Source: Geosiphon pyriformis uo1
Lineage: Eukaryota; Fungi; Glomeromycota
DNA: 64,000 bases
Reading direction: 5' to 3'
Assembly (NCBI GenBank): GCA_016748015.1
Contig: JAAOMT010000134.1
Span: 1,370,757 to 1,434,756 of the forward strand
The notes beneath the pieces are model-generated. The model was not told the origin of the DNA, made no database searches, and saw only the letters and a program-made list of their open reading frames with translations. The position numbers and the translations under genes were made by a program. The first letter of the stretch is position 1. Each line of letters begins with the position of its first letter. Shown piece by piece: positions 953 through 56,945 of the stretch.

Positions 953-993
953 CTACTAATAATTAAGTTGGTTTGGTTTGAGAAATTGTACTA

Positions 994-3687
994 TTACTGG
1001 ATGGTAAGTTTAGAGAAAGCATCAGCATTTTGATAATTTGCTCCTTTGCAGTGTTAAATATCATAGTTGAATTTATCCAAGTGGAGTATCCAGCAAGTTA
1101 TTTGTTTGTGTTCTAGCTTTTTTTTATTGCACAGCCAAACCAAGACTTGATGATCTATTACTACTAAGAATTTTACACCAAGAAAATATTGATCTTAGTA
1201 ACTAGTAGTCCAAACTACTGCTAAATACTCTTGTTCAGTAACTGAATAGTTCTTTTCTGCTGGTGTGAGAGATCTACTGACATATGCTATGGCATGTTTT
1301 CCGCCATTTTCATTTTTTTGTGAAAAAACAGCACTAAGTTCATAGCCAGATGTATCAGTATAGAGAATAAAAGATTGGTCCAGATCAGGTTGCTTGAGAA
1401 TTGGTTTAGTAACAAGTTTTTCTTTCAGAATTTTAAAAGCTTTTTGTTGATGAGTGCTTCAGTAATAATTAACATTTTTCCTGAGTAGCTGATTGAGAGG
1501 AAAGGCAATTTTGGAAAAATCCTTAATAAATTTGCAATAGTAAGAAGCCAAACCAAGAAAAAAGTGTAGTTCAGGAACATTTATTAGTTGTCTAATGTTC
1601 TGAACTTTTTTAATTTTAGCTAAGTCAGAGAAGATTTCATTTTTTGTAATAAAATGACCAAGGAACTGGGTGAATTGTTATTCAAAAAAAGATTTGATTA
1701 AGTTGATTTTAAGGCCAGCATTTCTGAGCAGGTCAAAAATCTTTTGTAAATGTTCAAGGTGTTCATCCCAGATTTTTGAATATACCATTATGTCATCTAA
1801 ATAAATCAGAACAAAGTTTTCTTTTACTAATTCAAACACTTTATCTATTAGGCATTGAAAAGTGGGAGGAGCATTGATGAGACCAAAAAGCATGACTGTA
1901 AATTCATAGATGTCATACTTGGTGATGAAGGCAGTTTTTTTTCTACTTTTTGGATCCATCTCTATTTGCCAGAATTTAGCAGTTAAGTTAATGGTTGAGA
2001 AGAAAGCAGCACCATTGAATTTATCTAGCATTGCATCAATTTTGGGAAGTGGGTACATGTCTCTTATAGTGATGACATTTAGTTGGTGGTAGTCAATACA
2101 GAAGCACAGGGTTCCATCTTTCTTGGATACCACTACAACTGGGAAAGCCCATTCACTCTTGGTTTCTTGTATAAATCCAAGATCTTTTATCCAGTTTATC
2201 TTTTTTTTGATGAACTCATCATTGCATCTATTGAATTGATAAGGCTTTAAATAGATGGAACAAGTTTTTTTTGTGGTAATGGTGTGTTGTATCACATGGG
2301 TTTGTCCAGAAGTATCACTTTTTTTTGAGATAATTGGGCTATTTCTAGCCAACAGATTTTCAATGTCCACTTTTCTTTCTTTAGGGGAAGGTTCTCTTTG
2401 TTTTACAACTAATAATTGGATTTCAGGTAGTTTATTCTCAAAAGACTTTTGTATTTCTTTAAGTTTTTCTTGAGGTATCAAGCTAATTGGTTTCTAATCT
2501 TTGTAATAGATTAGGCAGGATTTGCATTCATCACTTGGTGAATACAAAAATTTATTACACCAGCACTGTGTATAAGGACCATGCCATCAATAATTGTATT
2601 TGGCTTTCTTGCCAAGTTTTTTGTCAAAAGTTTTTCTGAGGATATTATAGTAGGGCCAGCAGATTAGCTTGCCATTTACCATAATTCCTTCTTTGTCAGT
2701 TTTAACATTGTCCAGTGGCTTGCCATTGCTGGTGAAAATAGTATAGACAAGTTTAGCAGTTTCTTCTTGTTCTTCTTGATCTTCTTTTTCATTGTTTTCA
2801 TCATTATCTGACTTATCTGATTGTTTTTCTTTTTGGTTTTGTTTGGATACTGGAGGGATTGTCTAATGACAGCACTTAACCATAATAGGTTTCTCACCAC
2901 ATCTGATGGTCAGCTTACAGAGTTCATAATCAAGCAAGGCTTTTGCTTTCTTAAACCATTTATTGGCAACTATTATGGTGTATTCTTTGGCTTCAAATAC
3001 TTCCATATCAGTTTCAATGCTGATGTCATTGATTCGGACAGAAACAGCTTTGGCTATGCCCAGATCTTTCTTCTTGTTACCATGTACATTGGTTATTGGT
3101 TTTGTGGATGGTTCATTAATTTTTCTGCCAATTGCTTCTAAAAAGTGTTTGGCAATAACACTAACAGATGATCTACTGTTTAGGATCAGATCAATAAAAT
3201 AACCAGCCACTTGGGCTTTACAAATAAGAGGAGTAATATTGCTGTTGTTAGCAAGTTTAGCTTGATGTGAATGTTTGTTGGTCTTTGGTGTCATTTTTTT
3301 GGATATTAATGATTTATGAAGATCTTTTCTGAACTGTAGGTGGGTCATTAGTTGACCAAATGTAATATGTACTGGGATTTTCATGAGATCTTTAACAACA
3401 AAATAAAAACCAGATTTTTGTATTATTTCTGGGGGTTCTAACTTTGGAAGATTCTTGAAAACTTTGGCCTTTGGTGGCTCATTGTTATCAGCAAATGATT
3501 TGAATGCTTTGTTTGAGTCCAAGACGAAATCAACCTTGGCTTTCTTCTTTTTTTTGGTTGATTCAGAGGTGTTGATTGCTAGTTTATCCATATCATGATC
3601 ATCATTAGTTAGATTAAAAGCATAAAAAGAGTTTTCTTCTGGTTGGCTTGCACTTTTATCTTTTGGAGGTGCATCTATCAGTTTAAA
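994..3687 (-). pseudogene. pol: A1 pol (protease-RT-RNase H), stop-interrupted
   Basis: ORF 2863-3591 (ILNSRSS = decayed DSG protease site) and ORF 1678-2481 (FCIDYHQLN, YPLP, YLDD); ends TAA TAG. Confidence 0.93.
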
Positions 3688-5228: not shown

Positions 5229-6716
5229 ACAATAAGAAACAGAGTGAATTTTGACAATCTTACAGAGAGCACCACTTTTATGTTATGGATTGGAGTAACA
5301 AGTTAATGGATAGCAAGGGAGAACAGGATTGTAGGGTGATGAAAATAATCAAAGGGAATTCAACTTCAAAGAGCAAATTAAATAAGTATGGATTCAATGT
5401 ACGAGATCAGTCTTATAAAATATCTCAGTCACTATTTTTTTTAAAAAGTAACTGGAGAATCTGAAGGTAGAGGAATAGTCCATACTGTTAACAAATGATT
5501 ATGCCTGGTATAATTCTATGCCTCATGTCAGCACTCTTAGAATTTAATATTAAGTATTAGATGTGCTCTTCAGTCATGTTTTATTCAATAATCTTTAAAT
5601 ACTACACTTATACATTTCAGAAAAAAAGTAAGAATTAACCAACAAGTAATCTTTTATTCCAAGATGTTCAGATACTTGAAGGTAGAGAAAGAGAAAATTA
5701 GTGATAAGAGAAGAATTAAGATGAAAGTTGTTATTTTATTTATTCTTAATTATTTTGAACATGCTTTTCTATAGCTAAGAAATTCATTGCATATATAGTT
5801 GTCAAAAGTGGTTAATGATCAGGTCAACAACTAAGTCAATGATCAGGTCAATGGTCAGGTCATTGATTAAGTCAATGATTGTTATCTAAAAATAGTGTGG
5901 TTAATACATGTGATAATTAATAAGAAGTATAAGTTTCAATCATAACAATAGTGTTATTGTTGAAACTTATACTTCTTATTAATTATCACATGTATTAACC
6001 ATTGATGTTATATAAATTAGCCACACTATTTTTAAAAAATGATTATTAATCTAATTATTGACCTGATCATTAACTTGATTATTGACCTTATTATTAATCT
6101 GATCATTGATCTAGTTATTGATCTAATCATTGACTACTTTTGATAGCTATATAAGTGATGAATTTTTTAACTGTAAAAAAGCATGTAGAAATTAAGGAAA
6201 TAAAAAAAATAAAATAACAACTTTATCTCAATTCTTCTCTTATCACTAATTTCTCTTTTCCTACCTTCAAGTATTTGAACATCTTAGAATAAAAAATTAT
6301 TTGTTGGTTATTTCTTACTCTTTTTTTGAAACATGTAATTACAGCATTTGAAGATTATTGAATAAAATGTAACTGAAGAGTACATCTGATACCTGATATT
6401 GAATTCTAAAAACACCAATGTGAAGCATAAAATTATACTAGTGTGTGATCATTTGTTGACAATACAGACTATCTCTCTACTTTTAGATTTCTGGTTATCC
6501 TTGAAAAGTATAGTGACTGAAATATTTTATGAGATTAATCTTGTACAATAAATTCATACTTATTCAATTCACTCTTTAAAGTTGAAATCTCTTTGATTCC
6601 TTTTATTACTCTACAATCCTGTTTATTCTTGCTATCCATTAGCTTGTTACTCCAACCTGTAACATAAAAGTAGTGCTTCTTGTGAAGTTGTCAAAATTCA
6701 TTTTGTTTCCTATTGT

Positions 6717-8049
6717 ATGGGTGATTATTTATACCTGCCACAACAATCAGAAGAACACTTTGAAGCACACAACAAAAACAATCTAGACTTTATTAAACTT
6801 AATCCTTTGCTCTCCTGCTTGATTTGCTTCTCTATTGAAAAACAATCTAGCAGATAATTCCAAGACTTTTGAAACTGGTTCCTAAACAAATATTTAGCTA
6901 AAACTTATACAGTTTATACAACCTATTATTTTGACCAAGCTTATTTTGAAGACAACTTTGAAGAAAAAAACAACAATATCAATCAGCTCTTATATTCTAT
7001 AATCTTTGAACAACAGCCTCCTGATTTCAAATATCTGAATCATTAAATCCACATTTGGATTACTGTTCATCAATTAACTAAAACTTCCCTTGAAACAGAA
7101 AAAGAAAGCTATCAAACCACTTCCATTTTTAATCTTTTTTCAAGTGAATCAGAACACTTTACACAAACAGTTATACCTAAACCAATGGTTCAAGACCCTC
7201 TGCAACAAAACATTTTGATTGCTTTTCAAAGTATACCAACTGCTTTAGGGCAAAAAAACAACACACCATTACCATTATTCAGAGATAATACTCAAGATTC
7301 AATTGAATGGTTAGATGACTTTGAGAGAGCTGCCACAGCAAACCAATATGATAATGAATACAAGTTTTAAATCATTAGTGGTTACCTTCAAGGCTCTCTT
7401 GCTACTTGGTTTTCACAAAAAACCAATGCTAATGCTTAGCAAAGAATCATTAGATGGACACCAGCAAATGCTGGAGAAGATAATACTTCTTTTACTACTT
7501 AGTTTGAAACAAAATTTAGAATTCTTATCTTGATATTCAAATGGCACATAGAATTGGAAAAAAGAACCCAAGGCCCAGGAGAAATAGTAACTGAATATGC
7601 TTGCTCCTGCTTCTGTCATGGCTCCAGCTTCACAAATGGTTGCTATCTCTTTTGCCACTTACACTCAAGACCCCAATAAACAATTAATAGACAGATTTAC
7701 TGCTAACCTTGCTTGGCTATTAAAATCATTAGCTCAAGCAGTCAGAGACAACTAGCAACTTCAAAGACCCAGATTTGAACCCCATTTTAATCAGCACCAA
7801 CAACTACCATATCAAAGACAACAAAATTGTGGTCCACTTATATGCTATTACTGTGAACTAACTGGACACTTTTCCAGAGACTGCAACAATTCTTTATTGC
7901 CTTTTTCAGTTCCTAAAAATAATGACATCCAGAATAACAAACTTAACAATAATAATGTTCTCAATCAAAGACCCAATCATGTCAACATTAATTTCTTTGG
8001 AGAGGATCCCTTAGTTAAAGCTACTGTTTATCAATTTTTAAACTGGTGG
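6717..8049 (+). pseudogene. gag: A2 gag with ~220-bp internal deletion near 7600
   Basis: ATG GGT GAT start; ORFs 7185-7370 and 7897-8085; CYYCELTGHFSRDC knuckle. Confidence 0.87.
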
Positions 8050-8521
8050 GTGTATTTCCAAAGAGTAAAAGTGCAAGCCAATTAGAAAAAAATCTCTTTT
8101 TTGCTTTTAACCTAACTAATAACAATCATAATATGAATGAACTGGCAATTAATACCTTTGACTTGACAAGAAAGAAAAAGAAAACTAAGGTTGATTTTAT
8201 TCTAGATTCCAACAAAGCCTTAACTTCCACCACTGACAACAATAAGCCATCAAAGACTAAAGTTTTTAAAAATTCTCCAAAGTTGGAACCTCCAAAAATA
8301 GTACAAAAATCTGGCCCCTACTCTGTTGTTAAAGATCTCATGAAAACCCCAGCACACATTACATTTGGCCAACTAATGACCCATTCACAGTTTAGAAAAG
8401 ACCTTTGCAAATTATTGATACTAAAGAAAAAAACACCAAAAACTAACAAGCATTCTTATCAAGCTAGACTTGCTGACAACAGCAATGTTACTCCTCTAAT
8501 TTGCAAAGCCTAAGTGGCTGG
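8037..8521 (+). pseudogene. pol: A2 pol, N-terminal part (up to the B2 insertion)
   Basis: ORF 8046-8513 matches ORF 13494-13985; begins at TTTAAAC 8037-8043. Confidence 0.85.
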
Positions 8522-9309
8522 TGTTACAAGTAATTATTTCTGGTGTTGAATTAAATAACAAATCTGTAACTTGGTGCTAAAAGTTATTCGTGTTGATGTT
8601 ATTAATCTGAAGGTTTTGTATCTAAAGGTTTCAGTTTGAGTTTTTTGTATTGTTACGGGTTGGAGTAACAAGCTAACGAATAGCAAGGGAGAACAGTATT
8701 GTATGGTGATGGAAATAAACAAAGAAGGAATTACAATAAGGAAGCAAATTGAATAAGTAGGAATTCAATATGCATAATCAGTCTTATAAAAATCACAGTC
8801 GCTAATCTTTTCTTAAATTTGAAGGTAGAGGAATAGTCCGTGATTGTCAACAAGATAACACCACTGCTATTATTCTATGCCTCAACTTGGCGATTCTTAG
8901 AATCAATAACAGGTATCATTGTACTTTTCAATCGTTTTTTTATTCAATAAATTACAAGAGCAAGCCAATTGCTTCTCAGGCTAATTCTAACAAATACAAA
9001 TCAAAAAGAGAAAAAGATAAGGTATGTAAATGCCAACAAGTAGATACTTGAAGGTAAAAAAAGGGGAATAAGCAATTATGAGAGGAAGTAATTGATATTG
9101 TTTATTTCGTTACTTTGATCATGTTTTTTTACAGCTAAGGGAATTATTGCTTATATAGCTATCTAAAGTGGTCAATAACCAAATCAACGATCAGGTCAAT
9201 AATCAGGTCAACAATCAGGTCAATAATCAGGTCATTGATCAGATCAATGATCACTATCTAAAAATAGGGTGGCTAATTATATGACATCAGTGGCTAATAC
9301 ATGTGATAA

Positions 9310-9966
9310 TTAATAAAAACTATGTGTTTTAACCATAACATTATCCTTTCCAAAGAGATTGAGCTCTGGCAAAATCAAACTATTTATGGGATAGTCTATG
9401 TGAAAGGTTTTGTTTAACTCAAAACTAACTAGTTTGTTGAAGTCTTTTGTGGATAGAGTATATAGTACTTGAGACAAAATAAGCTTTGTATCCAAGAAAC
9501 CAAATCTTTGTATAAGAGTTCTGGCTCTTCTAGCAATGGTCAAAACTCTTGGGACATCCAATCGTATAATGCCCAAAATTTCCACTTGTATCTCTGAAGT
9601 TGTTTTCTTCATGAGCTTCATGTCTTTTATGATTTTACCAAGATGACCATAGAGTTCTAGTTGTCTTCCATATGACAAGTTTTTGTCTATGGGCAAGATT
9701 TCTTGTATTGTTTTTCCAATTGTGCTGGAAGGTGAAAGTATTGCTACTGTTATGCTTTCCAGCAGGTATTTATCCATTTTGCCACCAATTCTTTCTCTTC
9801 TGGTAGTTGTTTTCTTTGGTCTAATAACAGTGTGAGTTTTACTGTTGTCTGTTATAGTGGTTTGTTTTCTGATAGTCAGAGTAGCATTTGGATAGTTCTT
9901 GATCCAATACTCATGGAGAGTATAGAAAGTGTTTTGAATGTTTTAATCCAGGAAATAATTGTTCAT
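9310..9966 (-). pseudogene. A3 ORF3, ~218-aa protein of unknown function; runs through the PPT and ends 30 nt inside the 3' LTR
   Basis: ATG 9966 is in frame with ORF 9310-9777 (one CAA>TAA stop between); same ORF in A2, A4, A5. Confidence 0.8.
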
Positions 9967-10007: not shown

Positions 10008-11321
10008 TTATATCTGATTTTTGCTGATTATTTGGGTTGGTATTACCACAACAGGTAACCAATCAGGTCGTTTGTGATATTTCTTGAGTCACATGCCATG
10101 AACAGGACGATTACTGAATATTGTTCCATATTGATCTTGTAAGATATAAGAACTATTGTTCAAAACTTTGTTGACTATAAAGAGTCTTTTCCATCGGCTA
10201 GAGAATTTATCACTATAGACATTGTTTCTGTCTGAACGGTATTCCAAAACTAAGTCATCAACACTTAAGAAAAGTGTTTTATAAGTCTTTTTCTTTTTGA
10301 GCTTCTCTTGGAATTGTTTTATCTTTTCAAAGGCAATTATTCGTGCTTCTACCAATGAGTCAAGAATAGTACCAAGTCTTCTTTGCAAAATGTCCTTGTA
10401 ATTTCCTATTGTTATTTCTTCAAAAGGTATTGTTTCTATATCCATTTTTATTGGTAAAGTTGCCATTTATCCATAGAGCAGATAAAAGGGTTCATAACTT
10501 GTTATGTCATGATTCACAGTTCTGTAAGCAAACAAAGCTGAAGGCAACATTTTGCCCCATAGGTTGGTTTCTTCACTGGTTTTGGCTAGGGTTTCACATA
10601 GTGTTCTATTAAAATGTTCCACTAGGCCATTTGTTTGGGGATGATAAGGAGAAGAGAGTTTATGACATATTCCCATTTTTCTGCAAAGTTCTTCAACCAG
10701 TGTACTGAGAAAAGCTCTTCCTCTATCAGATAAAAGTTCTTTGGGGCAGCTGTAGTGACAGATAATATCTTCATAAATGAAATTGGCAATTGAGACTGCT
10801 GTTTGATCTGGGGTGGCTCTTGTTTCTACCCACTTTGTAAGATAGTCGGTAGCTGTGATAATGTATCTGTTGCCATCAGGAGTTACTGTTAAAGGTCCAA
10901 CAACATATATACCAATTTTATTAAATGGTTAACCAACAAAAATTGGATGGATATCTTCCTTGCGATTGGGTTTTCCTCTTCTTTGGCAGGTATTACAGGT
11001 TTTAATGTATTCAGCAATGTCTTTTCCCAAGGTAGACCAATAATAGCAAGCTAAAGTTTTCTGAATTGTTTTTGTTTTTCCAAAGTGTCCAGCTAATGGA
11101 TCAGTGTGCATATTGTAGATCACAATTTCTCTTTCTTCAAATCTAATGACTTTCTGGGGGCGGTTAGGATCTTTTCTATTTCTTTTATATAACTGGTTCT
11201 GACAAATCAAATAGAAATTTCATTGTTTGTGCAAATGTTCTCTTTGCTGTCAAGTATAGTCCAGCAGGTATTGTCCTTTACCCAAAAATTTCATTAAAGC
11301 AGAGTAGTTGTTTAAGTTCAT
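10008..11321 (-). pseudogene. A3 integrase, stand-alone ORF (~437 aa)
   Basis: Own ATG at 11321; HHCC (HTDPLAGHFG..CNTC), LSDRG, QTNGLVEHFNRTL, decayed GPF/Y motif; ORFs 10929-11210, 10467-10676 and 10089-10466 share one frame. Confidence 0.92.
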
Positions 11322-11387
11322 TATCGTGTTTGTTTGTGGGGGAAGTTACAAATAATTAAGTTGGTTTGGTTTGAGAGGGTTTTACTA

Positions 11388-14081
11388 TCACTGGATGGTA
11401 AGTATGAAAAGAGCATCGGCATTTTGATGATTAGCTCCTTTACGGTGTTGAATGTCATAGTTGAATTCGTCCAAGTGGAGTATCCAGCAAGTTATCTGTT
11501 TATGTTCCAGGTTTCTTTTGTTGCATAGCCAAACTAAAGCTTGGTGATTTGTTACCACCAAAAATTTCACACCCTTAAGATATTTGTCCCAGTAGCTGGT
11601 AGCCCAAACTACTGCTAAGCATTCTTGTTCAGTGACTGAGTAGTTCTTTTCTGCTGGTGTGAGAGTTCTACTGGCATATGCTACAGCATGTTCTCTGTTA
11701 TTTTCATCTTTTTGGAAAAGAACAGCACCAAGTCCATAGCCAGATGTATCAGTGTAGAGGATAAAAGGTCGATCCAAATTAGATTGTATGAGAATGGGTT
11801 CTGTAACCAGTTTTTTCTTCAGAATTTCAAATGCTTTTTGTTGATGAGTGCCCCAGTGATAATTGATGTTTTTCCTAAGTAGCTGATTGAGAAGAGCAGT
11901 GATTTTAGAGAAATCCTTGACAAACTTGTGATAATAAGAGGCCAAACCAAGAAAAGAGCATAGTTCATGAACATTCATTGGTTGTCTAATGTTTTGAACT
12001 TTTTCAATTTTGGCTAGATCAGAGAAAATTCCATCTTTTGTAATAAGATGGCCAAGAAACTGGGTGGATTGACGTTCAAAAAATGATTTGATTGGATTGA
12101 TCTTGAGACCAGCATTTCTAAGGAGGTCAAAAATTTTTTGCAAATGTTCAAGGTGTTCATTCCAGGTTTTTAAGTATATCATTATGTCGTTCAAGTAGAC
12201 TAGAACAAAGTTTTCTTTTACTGATTCAAATACTTTGTCCATTAAGCATTGAAAGGTGGGAGGAGCATTTGTAAGACCAAAAGGCATGACTGTAAATTCA
12301 TAGGTATCATACTTGGTGATGAAGGCAGTTTTCTTTCTGCTTTCTGGATCCATCTCTACTTGCCAGAATTCAGCAGTTAAGTCAATAGTTGAGAAGAAAG
12401 CAGCACCATGGAATTGGTCTAGCATTGCATCAATCTTGGGAAGTGGGTACATGTCTCTTTCAGTAATAGCATTTAATTGGCGATAGTCAACACAAAAGTG
12501 TAGGGTTCCTCCTTTCTTGGATACCACTACAACTGGGAATGCCCATTCACTCTTGGTTTCCTGTATGAATCCAAGGGTTTTCATTCGGGTTATTTCTTTT
12601 TTGATAAACTCATCATTGTGCCAGTTGGATTGATAGGGCTTCAAATAGATGGGGCAAGTTTTTCTGGTGATGATGGTGTGTTGTATCACATGTGTACATC
12701 CAGGAGGTTCACCTTCTTTTGAGATAACTGGACTGTTTCTAGCCAGCAGGTTTTCAATGTCTACTTTTCTTTTTTCTGGAGAGGGTTCTCTTTGTTCTAC
12801 AACCAGTGATTGGATTTCAGGTGGTTCGTTTTCAAAGGACTTTTGGACTTCTTTTATTTCCTCTTGGGGTATCAAGCTGATTGGTTCCCAATCTTTGTAA
12901 TAGATCAGGCAGGACATGCATTCATTGCTAGGAGAATACAATGGTTTGTCACACCAGCACCGAGCACAAGAACCATGTCACCAATAATTGTATTTGGCTT
13001 TCTTGCCTGGCTTTCTGTCAAAGGTTCTTCTGAGCATGTCATAATAAGGCCAGCAGATCAGCTTGCCATTGACAATGATTCCTTCTTTATCTGCCTTGAC
13101 ATTATCCAGTGGTTTGCCATTGCTAGTGAAGATGATATAGATGAGTTCAGCAGTTTCTTCTTGTTCTTTTTGTTTTTCTTCTTTCTCACTTTTTTCATCA
13201 TCTGATTCATCTGATTCATTTTTTTCTGGGCTTTGCTTGGGTACTGGGGGAGTTGTCCAATGGCGACACTTAACCACAATGGGTTTCTTACCACATCTGA
13301 TAGTTAGTTTACAGAGTTCATAATCAAGCAAAGTCTTTGCTTTCTTGAGCCATTCATTGCCAACAATAATGGTGTATTCTTTTGCTTCAGACACTTCTAT
13401 ATCAGTTTCAATGCTGATGCCATTGATGCGGACAGGAATAGCTTTGGCTATGCCAAGCCCTTTTTTCTTATCACCATGCACATTGGTCATTGGTCATGTG
13501 GATGATTCATCAATTTTTCTGCCAATTGCTTTAAAAAAGTGTTTGGCAATAACACTAACAGATGATCTACTGTCTAGGATTAAATTGATGAAGTAGCCAG
13601 CCACTTGGGCTTTACAAATTAGAGGAGTAACATTGCTATTGTTAGCAAATTCAGCTTGGCGAGGGTGTTTGTTGGTTTTGGATGTCTTTTTCTTTGGAAT
13701 CAGGAATTTGTGAAGATCTTTTCTGAATTGTGGATGGGTTATCAATTGGCCAAAGGTTATATGTGCTGGGGTTTCCATAAGATCTTTGACAACAGAATAG
13801 GGACCGGATTTTTGTACTATTTCTGGGAGTTCTAACTTTGGAGAATTCTTGAAAACTTTGGCTTTTGAGAGCTCATTGTTGTCAGCAGTTGATGTAGAAG
13901 CTTTATTGGAGTCCAGAACGAAATCAACTTTGGCTTTTTTCTTCTTTCTTGTGGATTCAGAGAGGTTGATTGCTAATTCATCCATGTCATGGTCATCATC
14001 AGTTAAGTTAAAAGCATAAAAGAGGTTTTCTTCTGGTTGGCTTGCACTTTCACCCTTTGGAGGTGTGCCTACCAGTTTAAA
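11388..14081 (-). pseudogene. pol: A3 pol (protease, Cys motif, RT, RNase H) in the -1 frame relative to gag
   Basis: ORFs 13494-13985, 12978-13490 and 11388-12941 share one frame; ILDS, CVDYRQLN, MPFGLTNAP, YLND, YTDTS, NYSVTEQECLA, NADAL. Confidence 0.96.
14043..14081 (-). promoter_or_regulatory. Programmed -1 ribosomal frameshift signal (U UUA AAC plus downstream hairpin)
   Basis: Heptamer at 14075-14081 in X XXY YYZ phase with gag; -1 shift enters the pol frame; conserved at 3681-3687, 8037-8043 and 54194-54200. Confidence 0.85.
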
Positions 14082-15622
14082 GGCTGATAAACAGTGGCTT
14101 CAACTAGGGGATCCTCTCCAAAGAAATTGATGTTGGCATGATTGGATCTTTGGTTGGGCACATTGTTGTTGTTGATCTTGTTGTTTTGAGCATCATTGTT
14201 TTTGGGGACTGGTGGAGGCAGTAGAGGATTGTTGCAATCTCTTGAAAAGTGTCCAGTTAATCCACAGCGATAGCATACAGATGGGCCACAATTTTGTTGT
14301 CTTTGATAAGGTGGTTTCTGGGGCTGATTGAAGCGTGGTTCAAATCTGGGTCTTTGTGGTTGCTGATTTTCTCTGACTGCTTGAACTACGGGTTCTAATA
14401 ACCGAGCAAGATTTGCTGTAAGTCTGTCTATTAACTGTTTATTTGGATCTTGAGTGTGAGTGGCAAAAGAAGTAGCAGCCATTTAAGGGGCAGGAGCCAT
14501 GACAGAAACAGGAGCAAAAACTGATAGTGTGGATTCCAAGTGCATCCTTTGGTTATCTTCAATTCTTTGTGCTAATTCAATGGCCATATCCATGGTGAGA
14601 TTATCTTTTAGGGCCAGGAGGGGCCAAAGAGCATATGATAGATCAGTTCTCAATCCTTTTGTGAAGGAGTGAATTTTCTGCTCTTCTGTCCAATTTTTTC
14701 CAGTGTCTACTCATTTGATTAACTTTCTGATTGCTTTGGTGTATTCGGTTACAACTTCACCGGGATCTTGGGTTCTTCTTTCCAATTCTATACACTATTT
14801 TGATATTAATATTGGGGTTCTGAACTTGTTTTCAAACCAGGTAGTGAAAGAAGTGTTGATTTCTCCCACATTTGCTGGTGTCCATCTAATGATTCTTTGC
14901 TGAGCGTTGGCATCTGTTTCTTGTAAGAACCAGGTAGCAGAGGATCCTTGAAGGTAGCCACCAACAATTTGGAACTTGTACTTATCATCATATTGATTGG
15001 CTGTAACAGCTCTTTCAAAGTCATTCAACCATTCAATTGGATCTTGTGCATCACCTCTAAATAATGGTATTGGGGTGTTGTTTCTTCATCCTAGAGCAGT
15101 TTGTATACCTTGGAGGGCAGCCAGAATGTTTGCTTGCATGGGGTCATTAGCCATTGGTTCAGAGGTAACTGTTTGTGTAGACGAGTCTGATTTGCTTGAT
15201 AAAAGATCAAAAACAGGGGCAGTTTGGTAGCTTTCTTCTTCTGTTTCAAAGGGAGTTTCAGTTGCTTGATGGGCAGCAATCCAAATGTGGATTTGATGAT
15301 TCAGATATTCGAAATCAGGGGGCTGTTGTTCAAAGGTTGCAGAATATAAGAGCTGATTGATACTGTTGTTTCTTTCTTCAAAGTCATCTTCAAAATAAGC
15401 TTGGTCAAAGTAATAGGTTGTATAAGCTGTATAGGTTTTAGCTGAATGCTCGTTCAAGAACCAGTTCCAAAAGTCTTGGAATTGTCTACTGGATTGTTTT
15501 TCAAGAGAGAAGCAGATTAAGCAGGAGGGCAGAGGATTAAGTTTAATAAAACTTTGGTCATTTCTGTTGTGTGCTGCAAAGTGTTCTTCTGATTGCTGTG
15601 GCAGATATGAGTAATCACCCAT
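14069..15622 (-). pseudogene. gag: A3 gag (~517 aa: N-terminal domain, capsid, CCHC knuckle)
   Basis: ORFs 15086-15622, 14795-15028 and 14069-14482 share one frame; CYRCGLTGHFSRDC. Confidence 0.93.
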
Positions 15623-16193
15623 ACAATGAGGGAATAAGTGAATTTTGACAACCTCATAGGGAGCACCACTTTTATGTTACGGGTTGGAGTAACAAGCTAA
15701 CAGATAGCAAGAGAGAACAGTATTGTATGGTGATAGAAATAAACAAAGAAGGAATTACAATAAAGAAGCAAATTGAATAAGTAGGAATTCAATGTGTGTG
15801 ATCAGTCTCATAAAAATCACAGTCACTAATCTTTTCTTAAATCTAAAGGTAGAGGAATAGTCTGTAATTGTCAACAAGATAACACTACTGTTATTATTCT
15901 ATGCCTCAACTCAACAATTCTTAGAATCAATAACAGGTATCATTGTACTTTTCAATCATTTCTTTATTCAATGAATTACAAGAGCAAGCCAATTGCTTCT
16001 TAGGCTAATTCTAACAAATACAAATCAAAAAAGGGAAAAGATAAGGTATGTGAATGCTAACAAGTAGATACTTAAAGGTAAGGAAAGGGGAATAAGCAAT
16101 TATGAGAGGAAGTAATTGATATTGTTTATTTTGTTACTTTGATCATGTTTTTCTACAGCTAAAGGAATCATCACTTATATAGCTATCTAAAGT

Positions 16194-16289
16194 GGTCAAT
16201 GATCAGGTCAATGATCAGGTCAATGATCAAGTCAATGATCAGGTTAATAATCAGGTCAATGATCAGGTTATTGATCAGGTCAATGATCA
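16194..16289. repeat. 12-bp tandem repeat (GGTCAATGATCA) x8 in the A LTR, just upstream of the TATA box
   Basis: Directly visible; 4-11 units in all eight A LTRs. Confidence 0.95.
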
Positions 16290-16869
16290 CTATCTAAAAA
16301 TAGGGTGGCTAATTATATGACATCAGTGGCTAATACATGTAATAATTAATAAAAACTATGTGTTTCAATCATAACAGTATAATGGACAGAGATTCAATAG
16401 TTGTTTTATCCGTAGCTTCCAAGAATCGCAATTCTGTCAATTCTTCTCTTGGCATGATGGCCAGCAATCCTCTGGTAAGTATTCTATATCTTCTGTATGT
16501 GTCCTACCCTCTCGCAGGGGTCTTTTACCAGACAATTCTTGACATCAGTAATCTAGTGCTTTATTCAACCAATTAGTGCACAACAATAAAATCAAAATGA
16601 AATAAAAAAAAGAAATAAAAGAAAAATAAAGAAAGAAAAAAATAAGCCAAGGCAATTTGCAAGTTAGTATTCCATCAATAGCCATAATCAAGAGCTATTG
16701 TTTCAGTGTGGTTAAGTATCAATTACTATCAATATGAAGTGTTGATAGTAGCAGTGGGTTTGAGATAACAAACAGTTATTTATTTGTGGTTTGGAAAGTT
16801 GTCTAGATGAAATCTAAACTGAGAGGTCTGTCTTTTTAGCTTCTAATCCTACTGCTATATATACATAAT

Positions 16870-17804: not shown

Positions 17805-19187
17805 TTAATTTAACGTGTTGTTGTCAATGATAATGATTGGTTCCAGATTTTGTAAAATCTCCTCTGGTTGGACTAGTATCTTCTGTACTCTTAATTGTGG
17901 AATATTACTGGTGGATGATAGTGTAATGTTGTGGTATGATTTCAGTTGATCTCCATGTGCTGCTTTGGTTAAGATTTTGTTATCCAGTCTTAATTTGTAA
18001 GCTCCATTCCCTAGAATTTCTTCTATGTGAAATGGTCCATCCCATTTGGGGTTGAATTTTTTATTCCATTGTTTTTTTGCTTTGGTACAATGTAAGAGTA
18101 CTTTGTCTTCAATCTTGAATTCAACTGGTTTGTCTAGTAGTTGATTATCATGTCTTTTTTTCTGTTTCTCTTGTGACTTTTGTATATTATCAGCTGCTTT
18201 TTTTTGTTTGTTTTCTAATGTTTCCATTAAGTCATATGTTCTTCTTAACAATGTTTTTTGGAAATTTTTTTCTGTTATTGGTTCAGTTGGATATGTGTTA
18301 ACCTTTATCTCAACTGGTAATGTTGCTGTTCTACCGTATATCAATTCAAATGGTGTTGTTTGTGTGGTGTCTTACTTCATTGTCCAATAAGCAAATAATA
18401 CTGATGGTATAAACAAATCCCATTCATTCTGGTTTTTTTGGCTGAGTTTTGCTATTGCTTCACACAATGTTCTATTAAATCTTTCAACTAATCCATTGGT
18501 TTGTGAATAATATAATAATGATAATGGTCTCTTAATTCCGAATCTTTGGCTTAATTCTGCTAATGTTCTATTCACAAAATGGGTTCCTTGGTCTGATAAT
18601 AATTCTTTTGGACATTCATGTCGACAAATCAGATATTGATAGACGAATTCGGCAACAGATTCTGCATTCACTCTTTGAATTGCTTTGGCTTCTGGCCATT
18701 TAGTAAGATAGTCCATGGCTACTGCAATATATCTGTTGTCTCTGCTGGTAATTATTAATGGTCTGACTAAATCAATTCCAATATGGTCAAATGGTTGTTC
18801 CACTTTAATTGGTCTCAATAGTTTGCTGGGTCTTGTTTCTTCTCTTCTTTGACAAGCATCACAATTTTGCACATATTGGATGATGTTTGGATACATTGAT
18901 GGCCAATAGTATTTCTTTTTGGTTCTTTCTATGGTTGCTTCTTTATGAAAATGTCCTGCCATTAGATCTGAGTGTATGTTGAACAGTATTGTCTCCTTTT
19001 CTGGTTCTGTAATTATTCTGGTTGGTTAATCTGAATCTTTTCTATTTTTCTGATAAAGTATATTTTGGTGAATGATAAAATATTTGGATTGTTGTTTGAT
19101 CCTCTTTTGTTCTGGTTGAGATAATTTCTTCTTAAACTGTTGAGTATTTATATAATATTGAAGTTGTTAATATTTTTGTGTGTTTAT
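17805..19187 (-). pseudogene. B2 integrase, separate ORF in a different frame from RT
   Basis: HSDLMAGHF..CDAC, IGIDLV, LSDQG, NGLVERFNRTL, WDGPF; presumed start is ATA at 19187 (inferred ATG>ATA). Confidence 0.9.
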
Positions 19188-21074
19188 TTTTTGTTATATT
19201 TTCGTGAGTATTGTTTGGGTTTTGTTATATTTTTGGGTTGAAATGTTCTTAGATTTGTCTCATTTGTGACAAACTGTTGGCATTTCTATTGTCTTTTCCC
19301 TTTTTATAATGTATGGTATAAGTATATAGTACAAGTGCCATTTTCTATCTTGATTGTCTACCATTTCCAAATTCTTGTTTTTGGAGTGATGTTAGTCCTT
19401 TGTGATCTGTATACACTTTAAACTTCTGGCTCAAGTATTCTTTCCATTTCATGACTGCTCAGTATATTGCTAAGTATTCTTGTTCCAGTGTTCTATAGTT
19501 CTTTTCGGCTGGTGTTAAGTCTCAGCTGGCAAATACTACTGAATGTTCTCTTCCATCCAGTTTTTTCTGAGATAGTACTGCTTCCAATGCTTGACCTGAT
19601 ACATTAGTAGTAATGATGAATGGTTTGTTGTGATCTGAATAGATCAATACTGGCACTTAAATGAGCTTTCCTCTTAAAATGTCAAAAGCTTTTTGTTGCA
19701 TTTCCATCCATTCATATTTCACATTCTTGGTTTGTAGATGGTTGAGTGGCTGAGCTATTTTAGAAAAGTTTTTGATGAAGCAACGATAATAGCTTGTAAA
19801 TCCCAAGAATGATTTTAGTTTGGTCACATTGGTTGGTACTAGAAAGTTCTTTACTATTTCTATCTTGTCTGGGTCTGTCTTGATACTGTCTTTGCTGACT
19901 ATATGTCCCAGAAACTTCAGTTCTGTTTTGCCAAAGAAGCACTTGGTAGCATTTAGCTTTAACTCTGCTTGTCACAGTCTTTCGAATACTTGTTGAAGAT
20001 GATGGAGATGATCATCAAATGTTCTTGAGAATATATTGGTGTTGTCTAAGTACACAACTACTGATTTTCACAATAAGCCAGTATACACAATTTTTATTAG
20101 CTGTTGGAAGGTTGCTGGGACATTGGTTAAGCCAAATGGTATTACTTCAAATTCAAAATTTTTTTTTCTTGTGATGAATGTCGTTTTCTTTTTGTCGGCT
20201 GGATCCATGGCTACTTGCCAGTAACCACTATCCAAGTCCAATGTTGTAAACCATTTGTTTCCTCCAAAAGCATCAAATAGTTCTTGTATCTGTGGAGTTA
20301 GATAGCTGTCTCCACAAGTTACACCATTGAGTTTCCTGTAGTCTACACAAAATTGGATTTTTCTATTCTTCTTACAAACAAGTACTACTGGTGACAACCA
20401 TGGGCTCATTGATGACTGAATTAACCTATTGTCAAACATTCAGTTGATCTTTTGATGGATGATTTCATGGCTGGCTAGTGGTACCCTATATGCTCACTGT
20501 TTGATTGGTATTGCATTCTCAATCTTGATTTGATGCTGGATAATATCAGTTCTGCCAAATTTGTTTTTACTAGTGAAGATGTCATTGAAATTATTAAGTA
20601 ACATTTTTAGTTGTATCTGTTGAAGTGGGTCTAGATTTCCCATATTTATCTGTTCCAATTGTTCTGACTGTAACAGATAACATTTATTTCATCTGTAGAT
20701 GGTTTGTGATGTAATGTTCACATATTCACAAAGCTATGGAAAATCTGAAATGCTGCTTGGTGTTTGATCTTCAATTTCCATGGTTAAATATCTAAGAGTG
20801 GTTCCTTTTGGTATTTTTACAACATTTCTGGTGTTGTTGTAGATGGGAATTTTGATATGGTTATGGCTTTTGGCTGGTATGTGTAGATTGATAAGTCCAA
20901 TTTCTCCTAATTCACAAAGGATTGCTTCTGCTTCAAAAATCTGTTTGTGTTCCTTCTCTTTTCTTTCTATTGCTAATATGTATTGGCTATATGATGAAAT
21001 GAAAATTGTTTGACCAGTTGAGATAACTTTTCCTTAGCCAATAATTTTTTTCTCTACCATATTGACTGGTATAT

Positions 21075-21480
21075 TTATTCTACCTGTGGATCCAAATTTC
21101 TGTATTCCTCTTGCTGTTATCTCTAGTTCTTTTCTGTTTCCTACTGATATTAATTGAGCTATTTTAACCAGAGGCAAGAAGATTGCTTGTACTATCTTTT
21201 TGTTTGGCTTTATAATATAGGTCTTTTCTGAGTCATTTTGTAGCATGGCGATAATATTTCCTATATATCCTGTGTTAATTATTCCTCTTCTGATATTTAT
21301 CTCTCTTTTCACTAGACTACTCTTAGATGCTAATTAAACTATTGTTGTTGCCAGAATTTCCAGTGCTATTTTTAAATCAATGCAGATGCGTGAATGTGGT
21401 TCCAATTGAATGGCATCTTTTCCTAAATACCTCAGATTAAACCTGGCATCAGTATCATGTGTGCATTCTGGCATAATACC
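21075..21480 (-). pseudogene. dut: Trimeric dUTPase domain of B2
   Basis: Five motifs in order: HDTDARFNLRY, ASKSSLVKR, GIINTGYIG, KIVQAIF, RGIQKFGSTG. Confidence 0.9.
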
Positions 21481-26481: not shown

Positions 26482-28689
26482 CTACTTTATTAATTTGATC
26501 CTAAACAGTGGATTATCTGTCAGTGTAATTGCCAAACACTTTTTGGAAGCCATTGGAAGAAAGATTGATGAATCTTCTATCTGGTCTATGACCAATGTAC
26601 ATGGTGACAAAAAAAAAGGTCTGGGTATAGCCAAAGCTGTTCCTGTTTACATTAATAGTATTAGCATTGAAACAAACATGGAAGTATTTGAAGCAAAAAA
26701 GTATACTATCATTGTTGATAATGAGTGGCTTAAAAAAGCCAAAGCACTACTTGACTATGAACTTTGTGAGCTAACTATTAGATGTGGTGAGAAACCCATT
26801 ATGATTAAATGCTGTTATTGGACAACTTCTTCAGTAACCAAACAAAACCAAGAAAAAGAACAATCAAATGAATCAGATGATGATAAGAGTGATGATGAAA
26901 AAGATCAAGAAGAACAAAAAGAAACTGCTGAACTTGCTTATACCATCTTTACCAGCAATAGCAAGTTACTGGACAATATTAAAGCAGATAAAAAAGGAAT
27001 CATAATAAATGGCAAGCTAATCTGCTGGCCCTACTATGATATTCTCAAAAGAACTTTTGACAGAAAGCCTGGCAAGAAAGCCAAATACAGTTATTAGTGG
27101 CATGGTCCTTGTGTCAGGTACTGGTGTGATAAATTTTTGTATTCTTTTAGTGATGAATGCAAGTTCTGTTTAATCTATTACAAAGATTGGAAGCCAATTA
27201 GTTTAATACCCAGAGAAAAACTAAAAGAAGTACAGAAATCTTTTAAGAGTGAACCACTTGAAATTCAATCACTAGTTGTAGAACAAAGAGAACTTTTCCT
27301 TAAAGAAAGAAAAGTGGACATTGAAAATTTGTTGGCTAGGAATAGTTTAGTTATCTCAAAAGAAAGCAATACTCCTGGACAAATCCATGTAATACAACAT
27401 ACTATTATCACAAAAAAAACTCATTCATTCATTTGAAGCCTTATTAATCCAATTAATACAATGATGAGTTTATCAAAAAAAAGATAAACTGGATGAAAGA
27501 TCTTGGATTCATACAAGAAACCAAGAGTGAATGGGCTTTCTCAATTGTAGTGATATCCAAAAAAGATAAAACTTTATGCTTCTGTGTTGACTACTGTCAA
27601 TTAAATGCCATCACTATAAGAGACATGTACCCACTTCCCAAAATTGATACAATGCTAGATAAATTCAATGGTGCTGCTTTCTTCTCAACCATTAACTTAA
27701 CTGCTAAATTCTGGCAAGTAGAGATAAATTCAGAAAGCAGAAAGAAAACTGCCTTCATTACCAAATATGGCACCTATGAATTCACAGTTATGCCTTTTGG
27801 TCTTACCAATGCTCCTTCTATTTTTCAACACCTAATAGACAAAGTATTTAAATCAGTAAAAGAAAACTTTGTTCTGGTCTATTTAGACAATATAATGGTC
27901 TACTCAAAAACCTGGGATGAACACCTTGAACATTTGCAGACGGTTTTTAACTTGTTCAAAAATATTGGCCTTAAGATCAACCCAATCAAATCTTTCTTTG
28001 GACACCAATCCACCCAGTTTCTTGGTTATCTTATTACAAAAGATAGAATCTTTTCTGACCCAGCTAAAGTTGAAAAAGTTCAGAATATCAGACAATCAAT
28101 AAATGTTTCTGAACTATGCTCTTTTCTTAGTTTGGCCTCTTACTATCACAAATTTATTAAAGATTTCTCCAAAATCGCCTTTTCTCTCAATCAGCTATTC
28201 AAAAAAAATGTCAATTATTACTGGGGTACTCATCAACAAAAAGCTTTTGAAATTCTGAAAGAAAAACTTGTTACTAAACCAATTCTCAAGCAATCTGATT
28301 TGGATCAATCTTTTATCCTTTACACTGATACATCTGGCTATGAACTTGATGTTGTTCTTTTACAAGAAGATGAAAATGGCAGAAAACATGCCATAGCTTA
28401 TGCTAGTAGATCTTTTACACCAGCAGAAAAAAACTATTCAGTTATTAAACAAGAATGTTTAGCAATAGTTTGGGCTACTAGTTACTGGAATCAATATTTT
28501 CTTGGTGCAAAATTCTTAGTGGTAATAGATCATCAAGTCTTGGTTTGGCTGCACAATAAAAAAAAGCTGGAACACAAATAAATAACTTACTAAATACTCC
28601 ATTTAGATGAATTTGACTATAATATTTAATACTGCAAAGGAGCAAATCATCAAAATACTGATGTTCTCTTTAAACTTACCATCTAGTGA
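26482..28689 (+). pseudogene. pol: A2 pol, remainder (protease-RT-RNase H)
   Basis: ORFs 26414-27097, 27137-27436, 27493-28581; ends TGA TAG at 28687-28692. Confidence 0.92.
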
Positions 28690-28753
28690 TAGTACAATCT
28701 CTTAAACCAAACCAACTTAATTATTAGTAACTTCTTTACAAACAAACACAATA

Positions 28754-30061
28754 ATAGACTTGGACAACTACTCTGCCTTAATAGAATTTTTGGGTAAAGG
28801 ACAATACTCACCAGAATACACTTGACAGCAAAAAAAACATTTGCACAAACAATTAAATTTCTATTTAATTTGCCAGAACCAACTATATAAAAGAAATAGA
28901 AAACATTTTGACTGCCTTTAGAAAGTCATCAGATTTGAAAAAAAAGAAATTGTAATATACAACATGCACACTGACTTATTAGCTAAACATTTTGGAAAAA
29001 CAAAGACAATTTAGAAAACTTTAGCTCATTATTATTGGCCTACCTTAGGAAAAGACATTGCTGAATACATCAAAACCTGTGACATCTGCCAAAGAAGAGA
29101 CAAACCCAATTGCAAAGAAGATATCCATCCAATTTCTATTAGTCAACTATTTAACAGAATTAGTATAGATGTTATTGGATTTTTAACAATAACTCTTGAT
29201 GGCAACAGATATATTATTATAACTACCAATTATTTTACAAAGTAAGTAGAAGCAAAAGCCACTTCAGACCAAACAGCAGTCTCAATACCCAATTTTATTT
29301 ATGAAGATATTATCTGCCATCATGGCTGCTCCAAAGAACTTTTATTTGATAGAGGAAGAGCTTTTTTTAGTACACTGGTTGAAGAACTTTGTAGAAAAAT
29401 GGAAATACATCATAAACTTTCCTCCTCTTATCAATCTTAAACAAATGGCTTAATAGAACATTTTAATAAAACACTATGTGAAATCTTAGCCAAAACCAGT
29501 AAAGAAACAAACTTATGGGACAAAGTACTGCTTTCATTTTTGTTTGCTTATAGAACTGTAAATCATGACATAACAAGTTATAAACCTTTTTATCTGCTCT
29601 ATAAACACATGACAACACTACTAATAAAAACTAATATTAAGATAATACTCTTTGAAGAAATTACAATAAGAAATTACAAAGACATTTTGCAAAGAAGACT
29701 TAGTACTATTTTTGACTTCTTAGTAGAAGCATAAATAATTGCTTTTAAAAAGATAAAACAGTTTCAAGAAAAGCTTAAAAAAAAGAAAACTTATAAAACA
29801 CTTTCTTTAAGTATTGGTAATTTGGTACTAAAATACTATTCAGACAGAGACAATGTCTATGGTGATAAATTCTTTAGCTGATAAAAAGAACTCTTTATAG
29901 TCAACAAAGTTTTGAACAATAGTTCTTATATTCTTTAAGATCAATCTGGAACAATCTTCAATGATTATTCTGTTCATAGTACATGACTTAAGAAATATTA
30001 TAAACGACTTGATTGGTTGTCTGTTGTGATAATACTGACTCAAATAATCAACAAAAATTAA
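28754..30061 (+). pseudogene. A2 integrase ORF
   Basis: Colinear with 10008-11321; CDIC; FAYRTVNH. Confidence 0.85.
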
Positions 30062-45848: not shown

Positions 45849-47408
45849 ATGTCAAAAAACGCAAACCAAAAGTAAGCAGCAATCTCCTTGAAGACTAAAA
45901 AGGCTCTTTGTCAGTACAAACTAAAGCATCCTGACTACTCAGCAAATAAACTTATCAAAATATTTAATCTAAAAGTTGACTGTTCTACTGTAACAAAGAT
46001 ATTCGCAAAATCAGATTGATAGATTGAAAAGAATGTATCTAACAACTCTGGTCAATTGACAAAGGACAGGAAAGAGATGTTTCTGAAAATAAATAATATA
46101 CTAAGAGAATAGATACTTGGAGCACTAGCTATCAACTGCATTTTTACTGGAAAAATTTTACAAACAAAAGCCTTCAAGTTTGCTGAAAAGTTTCTAGAAG
46201 AAAATAACTTTAAAGCATCAGATGGTTGGTTAAAAAAGTTCAAGAAACATCATAATTTGCACCACATTAAGATGTATGGTAAAGCAAACAGTGCCCCCTT
46301 GGAAATTTTACTAGAGAAACAAAAGAAGCTGTATGAAATTATCAGCAAATATGATCTAAATGATGTTTACAATGCTGATGAGACAACATTATTCTTTAGA
46401 ATGCCACCAAATACAACTTTGGCAACAAAATTTATCTCTGGCATCAAGTGTGATAAGAGTCAAATTACCATACTTCTTGCTTGTAATGCAACAGACAGCA
46501 TCAAATTGCAGTTTTTAATTATTGACAAAGCCACAAAGCCATGATGTTTTCGCAATATTAATATGAATACACTTCCAATTACTTATTGTTACAATACAAA
46601 AACATGAATGCAAACCAATATTTTTAGTGAATGGCTTAATTTATTAAATGAAAAAATGCGTCACAAAAAAAAAAAGATTTTTCTATTGCTTAATAATACT
46701 GGTCCCCATGGTAAAGAACCTTCCATATTATCTAATATTATAATTAGATACTTACCATCTAATACAACATCCCATTTGCAACCATTAGATGCAGAAATTA
46801 TTGCATTTTTTAAGACACAATACCAAAAGTTGTTTCTTTTCCATCTTATTAATCAGTATAATGGCAAGATTCCAATATCAACAGTAACATTAAAGGATGC
46901 AGTTGACTTTCTAATTAATGTGTGGTTAGTGGTAACAACAACTACAATTCAAAACTGTTGGTGTCATACAAAAATTCTGAATAATAGTCAAATGCTAGCC
47001 CATCTATTAGATATTGAACAAGAACTCCTACAAGAAGTACAAATTCTTATTGAGCACATTGATATTGACAAGCTATTGGCAATAGATTTCATTAATATTG
47101 ACAAGTTTAAATCATTATTCACTTATGCTTCAAAGGATAAAATTGTGGATCTTATTAACAACAAGTATAGTGAAAATTCTAATGCAAATGAAGATTTAGA
47201 AAGTGAAAATGAAAATGAATCTTTGCTTTTGCTATCTACACATCAAGGTAAAATTGCACTTGAAGATACATTGTGCTATTGTAAAGAGCAGTATAATGAA
47301 AAAGTTGATTCAGACTTTTTTAAAACTTTGAGAACATTAATTCATAATACTGTTCTCAAAGTTCAAGAAGAAAAAAAACAGTTGCAAATAGATAGCTTTT
47401 TTAAATAA
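45849..47408 (+). pseudogene. pogo/Tigger transposase (CENP-B-type HTH plus DDE/D domain)
   Basis: FKASDGWLKKFKK, VYNADETTLFF, LLLNN..PH (D>N), LPSNTTSHLQPLD; single frame with internal stops. Confidence 0.93.
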
Positions 47409-56881: not shown

Positions 56882-56945
56882 TAATACAACTTTTTAAACC
56901 AAACCAACTTAATTATTAGTAACTTCTTTACAAACAAACATGATA

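Follow-up and report, generated by a model that had tools for sequence, protein, structure and literature searches.

An inherited, clade-wide Ty3/Gypsy organisation with integrase in a separate ORF

In canonical Ty3/Gypsy elements, including Ty3, Tj1 and DGLT-A, integrase is part of Pol, as described in the available portions of PMC5911963 and PMC12440569. This does not apply to family A of the window (the whole 64-kb stretch of DNA analysed here, a nest of decayed LTR elements), in which integrase is not the C-terminal part of Pol. The locus raises the questions of whether the split is ancestral or a product of decay, and how a free integrase would be made. Split from Pol, integrase would also need its own way into the particle. 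The layout of copy A3 is as follows:

16376-8651, minus strand: copy A3, a Ty3/Gypsy-type element with LTRs about 91% identical
15675-16376, minus strand: 5' LTR, starting with TG and ending with CA
14069-15676, minus strand: gag frame with a CCHC zinc knuckle (PF00098 in 14072-14482), broken by several stops
14075-14081, minus strand: TTTAAAC heptamer at the gag/pol overlap, common to the four copies
11388-14099, minus strand: pol frame with protease, reverse transcriptase and RNase H, C-terminus ...LTIQ, two internal decay stops
11382-11390, minus strand: Pol stop codons, TGA TAG (TAA)
11322-11381, minus strand: spacer, 6% G, ATG-free, unstructured (z -0.35)
10008-11321, minus strand: integrase in an ORF of its own, about 437 codons with five decay stops
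9310-9966, minus strand: extra ORF 3' of integrase, about 218 codons with an uncertain start, reading frame preserved across four copies
8651-9340, minus strand: 3' LTR, about 91% identity to the 5' LTR

The Pfam domains of A3 follow the Ty3/Gypsy order (zinc knuckle, protease, RT, RNase H, integrase core), with pol matching PF00078, PF17917 and PF17919 as well as PF08284, the last below its cut-off. A TGG resembling a primer-binding site follows the 5' LTR, 6 nt into the internal region, and the target-site duplication is 4 bp long (ATAC in A3, CTAC in A4). The best PDB match of the family integrase profile is Ty3 Gag-Pol (E 4e-51), and in A3 itself the first catalytic Asp has been lost through decay. 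LTRs with TG..CA ends, a target-site duplication, the gag-PR-RT-RH-IN order and an HHCC/DDE/GPY-F integrase are common to canonical Ty3/Gypsy elements (Ty3, Tj1, DGLT-A) and the elements described here, whereas integrase is here a separate ORF, often followed by a third ORF. TTTAAAC is found at the matching place in all four copies (14081, 8037, 54194 and 3687), and from the type of motif we take it to be the likely -1 frameshift site at the gag/pol overlap. The family is very abundant in run X1 (61,796 contigs).

Other family A pieces in the window lie head to head and nested (5948-7597 and 7601-8520), with inverted LTRs at about 5948. A3 sits inside another element, and A1, A2 and the 7601-8520 piece share one breakpoint in the protease region; this layout suggests insertion into earlier copies together with rearrangement. 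The remnant of a Tc5/pogo-type DDE transposase (PF03221, PF03184) occupies 46113-47408 on the plus strand.

An earlier note on this DNA had reported that Pol terminates behind RNase H in all four A copies, with two stop codons in a row, and re-examination bears this out at every position. The stops read TGA TAG TAA in A3 (11390-11382, minus strand), and the other three junctions are:

954-996, minus strand: A1 junction, stops TAA TAG at 996-991; cut at 954, before the integrase start
28687-28756, plus strand: A2 junction, stops TGA TAG at 28687-28692; start decayed to ATA
56879-56948, plus strand: A4 junction, stops TAA TAA at 56879-56884; 67 nt; ATG

In A2, the last Pol codon is itself a stop. 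Remeasurement returned the reported distances from stop to start, 69 nt in A3 and 67 nt in A2 and A4. The note had also credited integrase with its own ATG and an A at -3, which is right for the two starts it named, 11321 (minus strand) and 56946 (plus strand); in A2, the start is ATA. Its statement that the linker keeps no frame needs a small correction, as the 69-nt linker of A3 is in frame with Pol, although four stops lie inside it.

Could the stops have arisen by decay? The comparison within the family rests on the four copies of the window, which are 81-86% identical and differ mostly by transitions. Across 732 aligned Pol codons, 709 are free of stops, 16 are a stop in one copy and seven in two, and none is a stop in three or four copies; in contrast, the two adjacent junction codons are stops in all four. 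Over the 430 codons of the integrase frame, compared in three copies, there is no position at which all three have a stop. As the junction stops occur in 4/4 copies and no other Pol codon is a stop in at least three, the stops predate the decay. It is scarcely credible, then, that they are C>T/G>A decay products inherited by all copies from a single dead one: mutation has been heavy and each stop could have come from a sense codon by one transition, but the lack of any other stop in three or four copies, the split in a second family of the window (family B) and the intact relatives with the same split all speak against this, and loci L007 and L014 contradict it. Run X1 lists no variant at the junction stops, although it likewise misses the TGA/TAA difference among the window copies; it does list one-base deletions at 11338, 11343, 11377 and 11379, showing that the spacer varies in length.

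Two further constructions were tried and rejected. An intron that begins at the first stop and ends at the TAG located 28 nt ahead of the integrase start does not restore the frame (read by hand). An ancestral spacer of 68 nt, which would place a Pol-frame stop on the integrase ATG, requires both shared stops to be mutations, and A2 and A4 show 67 nt.

The split in family B lies at the following position:

19185-19251, minus strand: family B junction, RNase H stop at 19251; integrase in another frame

The family B integrase start has apparently decayed to ATA about 64 nt past the stop (read by eye), and the family is the sister of A3 on the RT tree (97/89). Between its protease and RT, a dUTPase-like stretch was noticed by eye (21100-21450, minus strand); among related Pol proteins, P0313 carries a dUTPase domain and P0310 a NUDIX domain.

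Outside the window, the DNA survey covered 83 metagenome loci, 39 of which have RNase H at most 1.5 kb upstream of integrase. Twenty-three of these are fused (integrase 29-41% identical to the query), 10 are split with an ATG at the conserved start, and six were set aside as distant copies with broken frames. L014 is an eleventh split locus, young and complete, with LTRs 96.8% identical and with 966 codons of gag-protease, 1114 of RT-RH plus tail and 434 of integrase, followed by a third ORF. L007 has one Gag-Pol frame of 1479 codons and an intact integrase frame of 422 codons. All eleven split loci show a Pol stop followed by an integrase ATG, two of them with intact long frames and one of these two with both LTRs. 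The stop-to-start distances are -5, 33, 65, 66, 77, 92, 113, 166, 281, 368 and 730 nt and fall in all three frames. At L009, one of the 10 split loci, a single stop separates Pol from an integrase in the same frame, and readthrough is possible there.

The protein databases give the same picture. With the RT-RNase H query, proteins of 496-1581 residues were searched, a range beyond which longer fusions lie, and the best 120 of 4178 matches were taken. At 44% identity or more (109 of the best 120), integrase is present in one of the 109, a gene model; Pol ends within 30 residues of the RNase H end in 84 of the 109, three of which are cut short of it, and the remainder carry tails of 32-373 residues. 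Below 44%, 7 of the 11 matches among the best 120 of 4178 carry integrase. One Pol subgroup (P0316, P0327, P0330, P0337, P0349, P0367, P0374, P0399, L007 and L014) continues for 160-590 residues past RNase H with acidic stretches and a Cys/His-rich motif, and this extension had no Pfam match in P0330, L007 or L014.

The integrase query, run against proteins of 237-755 residues, gave 868 matches at E 1e-20. Among the best 120 of these (39-65% identical), 97 have Met at the query's first column, and 15 start at a later Met, 54 residues before the zinc-finger His; named relatives come from Rhizophagus (R. irregularis and R. clarus), Entrophospora, Cetraspora, Gigaspora and Acaulospora. Among longer proteins there were 751 integrase matches, and three of the best 120 are close (46-52%). 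All three are fungal gene models, two joining RNase H to integrase and one gag to integrase, and the remaining 117 have 30-45% identity and, among the rows examined, are mostly fused Pol proteins of the ordinary kind. The fused proteins of mycorrhizal fungi, P0123, P0124 and P0376, are joined at three different points with the RNase H end lost, as gene-prediction joins would be.

These data bear on the idea that recoding still fuses integrase to Pol, whether by readthrough, by frameshift or by an intron that removes the stops. The single in-frame stop of L009 and three fungal database proteins annotated as fused would fit; however, the annotated fusions are mutually inconsistent and drop the RNase H end, the stop-to-start distances occupy all three frames, most loci have a closed integrase frame past the Pol stop, A3 has its four in-frame stops, and an invariant Met would be superfluous in a fusion. 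We consider recoding highly improbable. No close intact relative with a single RT-RH-IN frame was found among the matches examined, and no intron that removes the stops. The split Pol/integrase layout is inherited and is not a result of decay; in calling it ancestral design, the earlier note is supported both by the four-copy comparison and by intact relatives with an identical split.

The N-terminus of the separate integrase was examined in 78 full-length, hand-picked proteins, for which an invariant Met is partly circular, the fair count being the 97 of 120 given above. The HHCC and DDE residues (H72, H79, C109, C112, D139, D199 and E235) are invariant in 78/78, and the GPY/F motif (G-P-Y/F) is found in most of the 78 and is decayed in the window copy. 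All 78 chosen integrases have D, E or N as their second residue. Under the NatB rule, Met followed by D, E or N gives an acetylated N-terminus, and the residue-2 pattern is as would be expected for a true, acetylated N-terminus. In the relatives, Y/F12, P19, Y/F37 and Y/F45 are conserved and correspond to the YPYY region, a match made to the description in the available part of PMC2836005 and not to its alignment.

To place the lineage, trees of both enzymes were compared. In the RT-RNase H tree (96 rows, careful run), 34 of the 38 split-type rows form one branch (100/96) that includes both window families and leaves L035 outside. The Ty3/Gypsy organisation with a separate integrase is real, inherited and clade-wide. 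In the RT tree, 37 split-type rows fall in a branch with 56/90 (bootstrap 56), again with L035 outside, so that monophyly of all split rows does not follow; its rows were gathered by likeness to the window, so that the clustering is partly built in, and 29 of its split-type rows are proteins ending after RNase H and not loci. The RT tree omits four rows under 300 residues and the long-branch P0225, and both sets were thinned by identity. The RT rows are nested among fused Gypsy-type Pol at 40-46% identity, in a tree made without named clades or a Copia, BEL or retrovirus outgroup. In the integrase tree (81 rows, quick run), the stand-alone integrases, two Ginger1-like animal proteins, so labelled by their OTU/Ulp1 domains, and four fused proteins separate from 38 fused ones (SH-aLRT 100). 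A search of viral contigs gave three weak, unrelated matches only. Family A is a decayed member of an old Ty3/Gypsy lineage, likely one of mycorrhizal fungi, whose Pol ends after RNase H.

Two entries near this lineage are unusual. P0129 (12 members) is a truly fused RT-RH-integrase whose integrase lies near the stand-alone ones and lacks the N-terminal helix region, possibly as an outgroup or a re-fusion. L035 is split by 281 nt with an RT outside the main branch, which possibly reflects a second origin or a long-branch effect.

How would the separate integrase be expressed? We favour, with a probability of roughly 55%, a stop-and-restart route in which ribosomes translating the full-length RNA terminate at the Pol stop and resume at the next AUG, a proposal that rests on sequence features. 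They would restart at the integrase AUG either where stop and start overlap or once they have scanned a short way through a G-poor, AUG-free spacer (67-69 nt in family A). Integrase is not delivered by Pol, and to be packaged it would have to bind Gag, RT or its own template RNA. The integrase starts have a purine at -3 in 19/22 and G at +4 in 18/22, and an in-frame stop lies 6-177 nt upstream of the start in 22/22. At L021, the integrase ATG overlaps the Pol stop; judged from protein only, the ATG-overlap pattern fits 8 of 105 Pol ends, compared to a background of 2.2%.

The 11 spacers shorter than 200 nt, a cut chosen after the data were seen, contain one ATG, where dinucleotide shuffles give 8.9 (0 of 1000). 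Stretches of the same lengths taken immediately before the stop (23 ATGs versus 17.5 in shuffles) and non-coding DNA after the third ORF (29 versus 23.3) show no such depletion. The eight short spacers with verified RNase H have one ATG versus 4.2 (P 0.037), and the depletion is weak over all 14 spacers (23 versus 30.4, P 0.04); CAT and GTA are depleted in the spacers too. The overlap at L021 together with the ATG-poor short spacers favours stop and restart. In contrast, the long spacers of L004 (368 nt), L035 (281 nt) and L014 (730 nt) hold 7, 3 and 12 ATGs, which is the shuffle level, and are AUG-free in the last 82-151 nt only, so that simple scanning from the stop cannot work there. The layout for reinitiation, an overlap or an AUG-free spacer, is therefore present at L021 and at the short spacers and absent at L004, L014 and L035. 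In five cases the ATG-free zone ends 32 nt or less upstream of the Pol stop, regardless of spacer length. No calicivirus-type UGGGA motif was found in A3, and it is absent near the stop in most loci. The 730-nt spacer of L014 (6703-7432) contains one short motif three times and several small hairpins.

The same region could instead serve a subgenomic mRNA, made from an internal promoter or by splicing of the 5' LTR onto an acceptor close to the spacer, which we regard as possible, though on balance doubtful. The good Kozak context and the true N-terminus would fit it equally well, as would the long spacers that are AUG-free only near their ends. A branch-point-like TTAAT with a TAG 28 nt before the start occurs in three of the four family A copies, and run X1 has this TAG by its majority letter at 11350 (A>T, 166,551 of 216,060 depth). 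Such an mRNA would also uncouple the integrase dose from the pol frameshift; as pol is likely made by frameshifting, restart would be expected to yield little integrase. However, in L003, L009, L018, L035 and A3 the 58-116 nt preceding the start contain no AG, L009 and L018 have out-of-frame ATGs after their last AG and ahead of the start, and the overlap at L021 leaves a leader no room. Out-of-frame and in-frame ATGs at -7, -21 and -27 of L021 would be met first by ribosomes scanning a subgenomic RNA, which again favours restart.

In a subgroup of loci, a conserved RNA hairpin of 49 nt, with a purine-rich bulge of 11 nt and a small apical loop with a bulged A, precedes the integrase AUG:

L001, 581-629: hairpin
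L002, 18-66: hairpin
L005, 181-229: hairpin
L007, 4459-4507: hairpin
L012, 486-534: hairpin
L016, 4-52: hairpin
L017, 171-219: hairpin
L023, 488-536: hairpin
L025, 15-63: hairpin

In eight loci, the hairpin ends between a few and about 15 nt before the AUG. Both sides change in 8 of its 13 pairs and 93% of the cells pair, a level reached in 0 of 500 shuffles, and the model recovers the held-out ninth copy, L025, at the same place (E 2e-10). Since the hairpin stands directly before the AUG in nine loci, scanning would be hindered there. IRES-like internal initiation, through the unstructured A/C-rich spacer or, in this subgroup, through the covarying hairpin, could take advantage of such a position; however, neither the window nor any other split locus has the hairpin, and Rfam searches with the hairpin loci, the L014 spacer and copy A3 gave no credible match, which leaves an IRES improbable. 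The hairpin pattern had no match in viral contigs. Its role could be that of a tether for the terminating ribosome or of a packaging signal. Together, the long AUG-containing spacers and the subgroup hairpin keep a subgenomic RNA or an IRES viable beside restart, and the lineage may use more than one expression route.

A third ORF of 120-280 codons follows integrase in 10 of 17 loci (L001, L003, L005, L006, L007, L009, L012, L013, L014 and L031; about 145 residues), and some of the others run straight into the LTR. In L005, integrase and the third ORF are coupled by ATGA, a further point in favour of restart. The third-ORF profile collects 461 clusters at 50% identity, and the relatives' protein gives an all-helical model with pLDDT 96.3. 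No match was found in Pfam, PDB sequences, Foldseek PDB or viral searches; the best VIA comparison has Z 5.3 (rmsd 3.4, 69 aligned), and this is not proof of a new fold. The window's extra ORF does not match the relatives' profile, its homology being positional only.

Restart after termination is known from other systems. According to the available part of PMC5972666, LINE-1 ORF2 is translated by restart after a spacer of 63 nt, and SART1 and a hypovirus also use stop and restart. The LINE-1 spacer is close to the 67-69 nt found here, and in both a second long ORF lies behind a stop on one RNA. However, LINE-1, SART1, calicivirus, influenza B and hypovirus are non-LTR elements or RNA viruses, and the mechanism here is predicted. 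With the TAV protein of cauliflower mosaic virus, restart does not depend on spacing over a range of a few to 700 nt (PMC5972666, available part). Tolerance of this type would cover the range of -5 to 730 nt, and both systems have several long ORFs in a row; in contrast to TAV, no transactivator is known here, and the third ORF is similar to nothing searched. Foamy viruses likewise produce an enzyme separately from Gag and package it via the genomic RNA, but there the whole of Pol, including integrase, comes from a spliced mRNA.

Among LTR elements, Tat elements have an additional RNase H in its own ORF, i.e. a Gypsy enzyme domain outside pol (PMC10508981 and PMC13468544, available parts), but this ORF is an accessory RNase H and integrase stays in Pol. 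Troyka was considered and rejected, as it has CG..CG termini and a 3-bp target-site duplication and occurs in animals only (PMC12440569, available part), compared to TG..CA and 4 bp here. Ginger1 has a stand-alone Gypsy-like integrase with the YPYY region, HHCC, DDE and GPY/F (PMC2836005, available part). The YPYY region is found here as well; however, Ginger1 is flanked by terminal inverted repeats, lacks RT and carries a protease domain at its C-terminus, whereas the present elements have LTRs, gag and RT-RH, and no OTU/Ulp1 domain is listed among the Pfam domains of the best 120 integrase matches. In the open literature, with Repbase, GyDB and subscription journals outside the search, we found no LTR retrotransposon clade with a separate integrase ORF, including in the available parts of PMC6839031, PMC5751038, PMC11673190 and the preprints bioRxiv 10.1101/2021.03.30.436303 and 10.64898/2026.05.21.726589. 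In its fullest form, the proposal would be an undescribed LTR branch that expresses gag-pol, integrase and a new-fold protein polycistronically by restart, aided by the hairpin or the third protein, that packages free integrase and that is of the type of the Ginger1 ancestor; as a whole, this combination is tentative and rather unlikely.

Integrase within Pol has been treated as a rule for LTR retroelements, as it sets the dose and ensures packaging, and a large, successful lineage breaks this rule. Gene finders stitch the Pol and integrase ORFs into false fused proteins, and stand-alone integrases may be miscounted as DNA transposases. The split lineage makes it possible to test directly by what route a free integrase enters the particle, and to test reinitiation downstream of a very long fungal ORF; it may also offer a natural intermediate for the proposed Gypsy origin of Ginger1.
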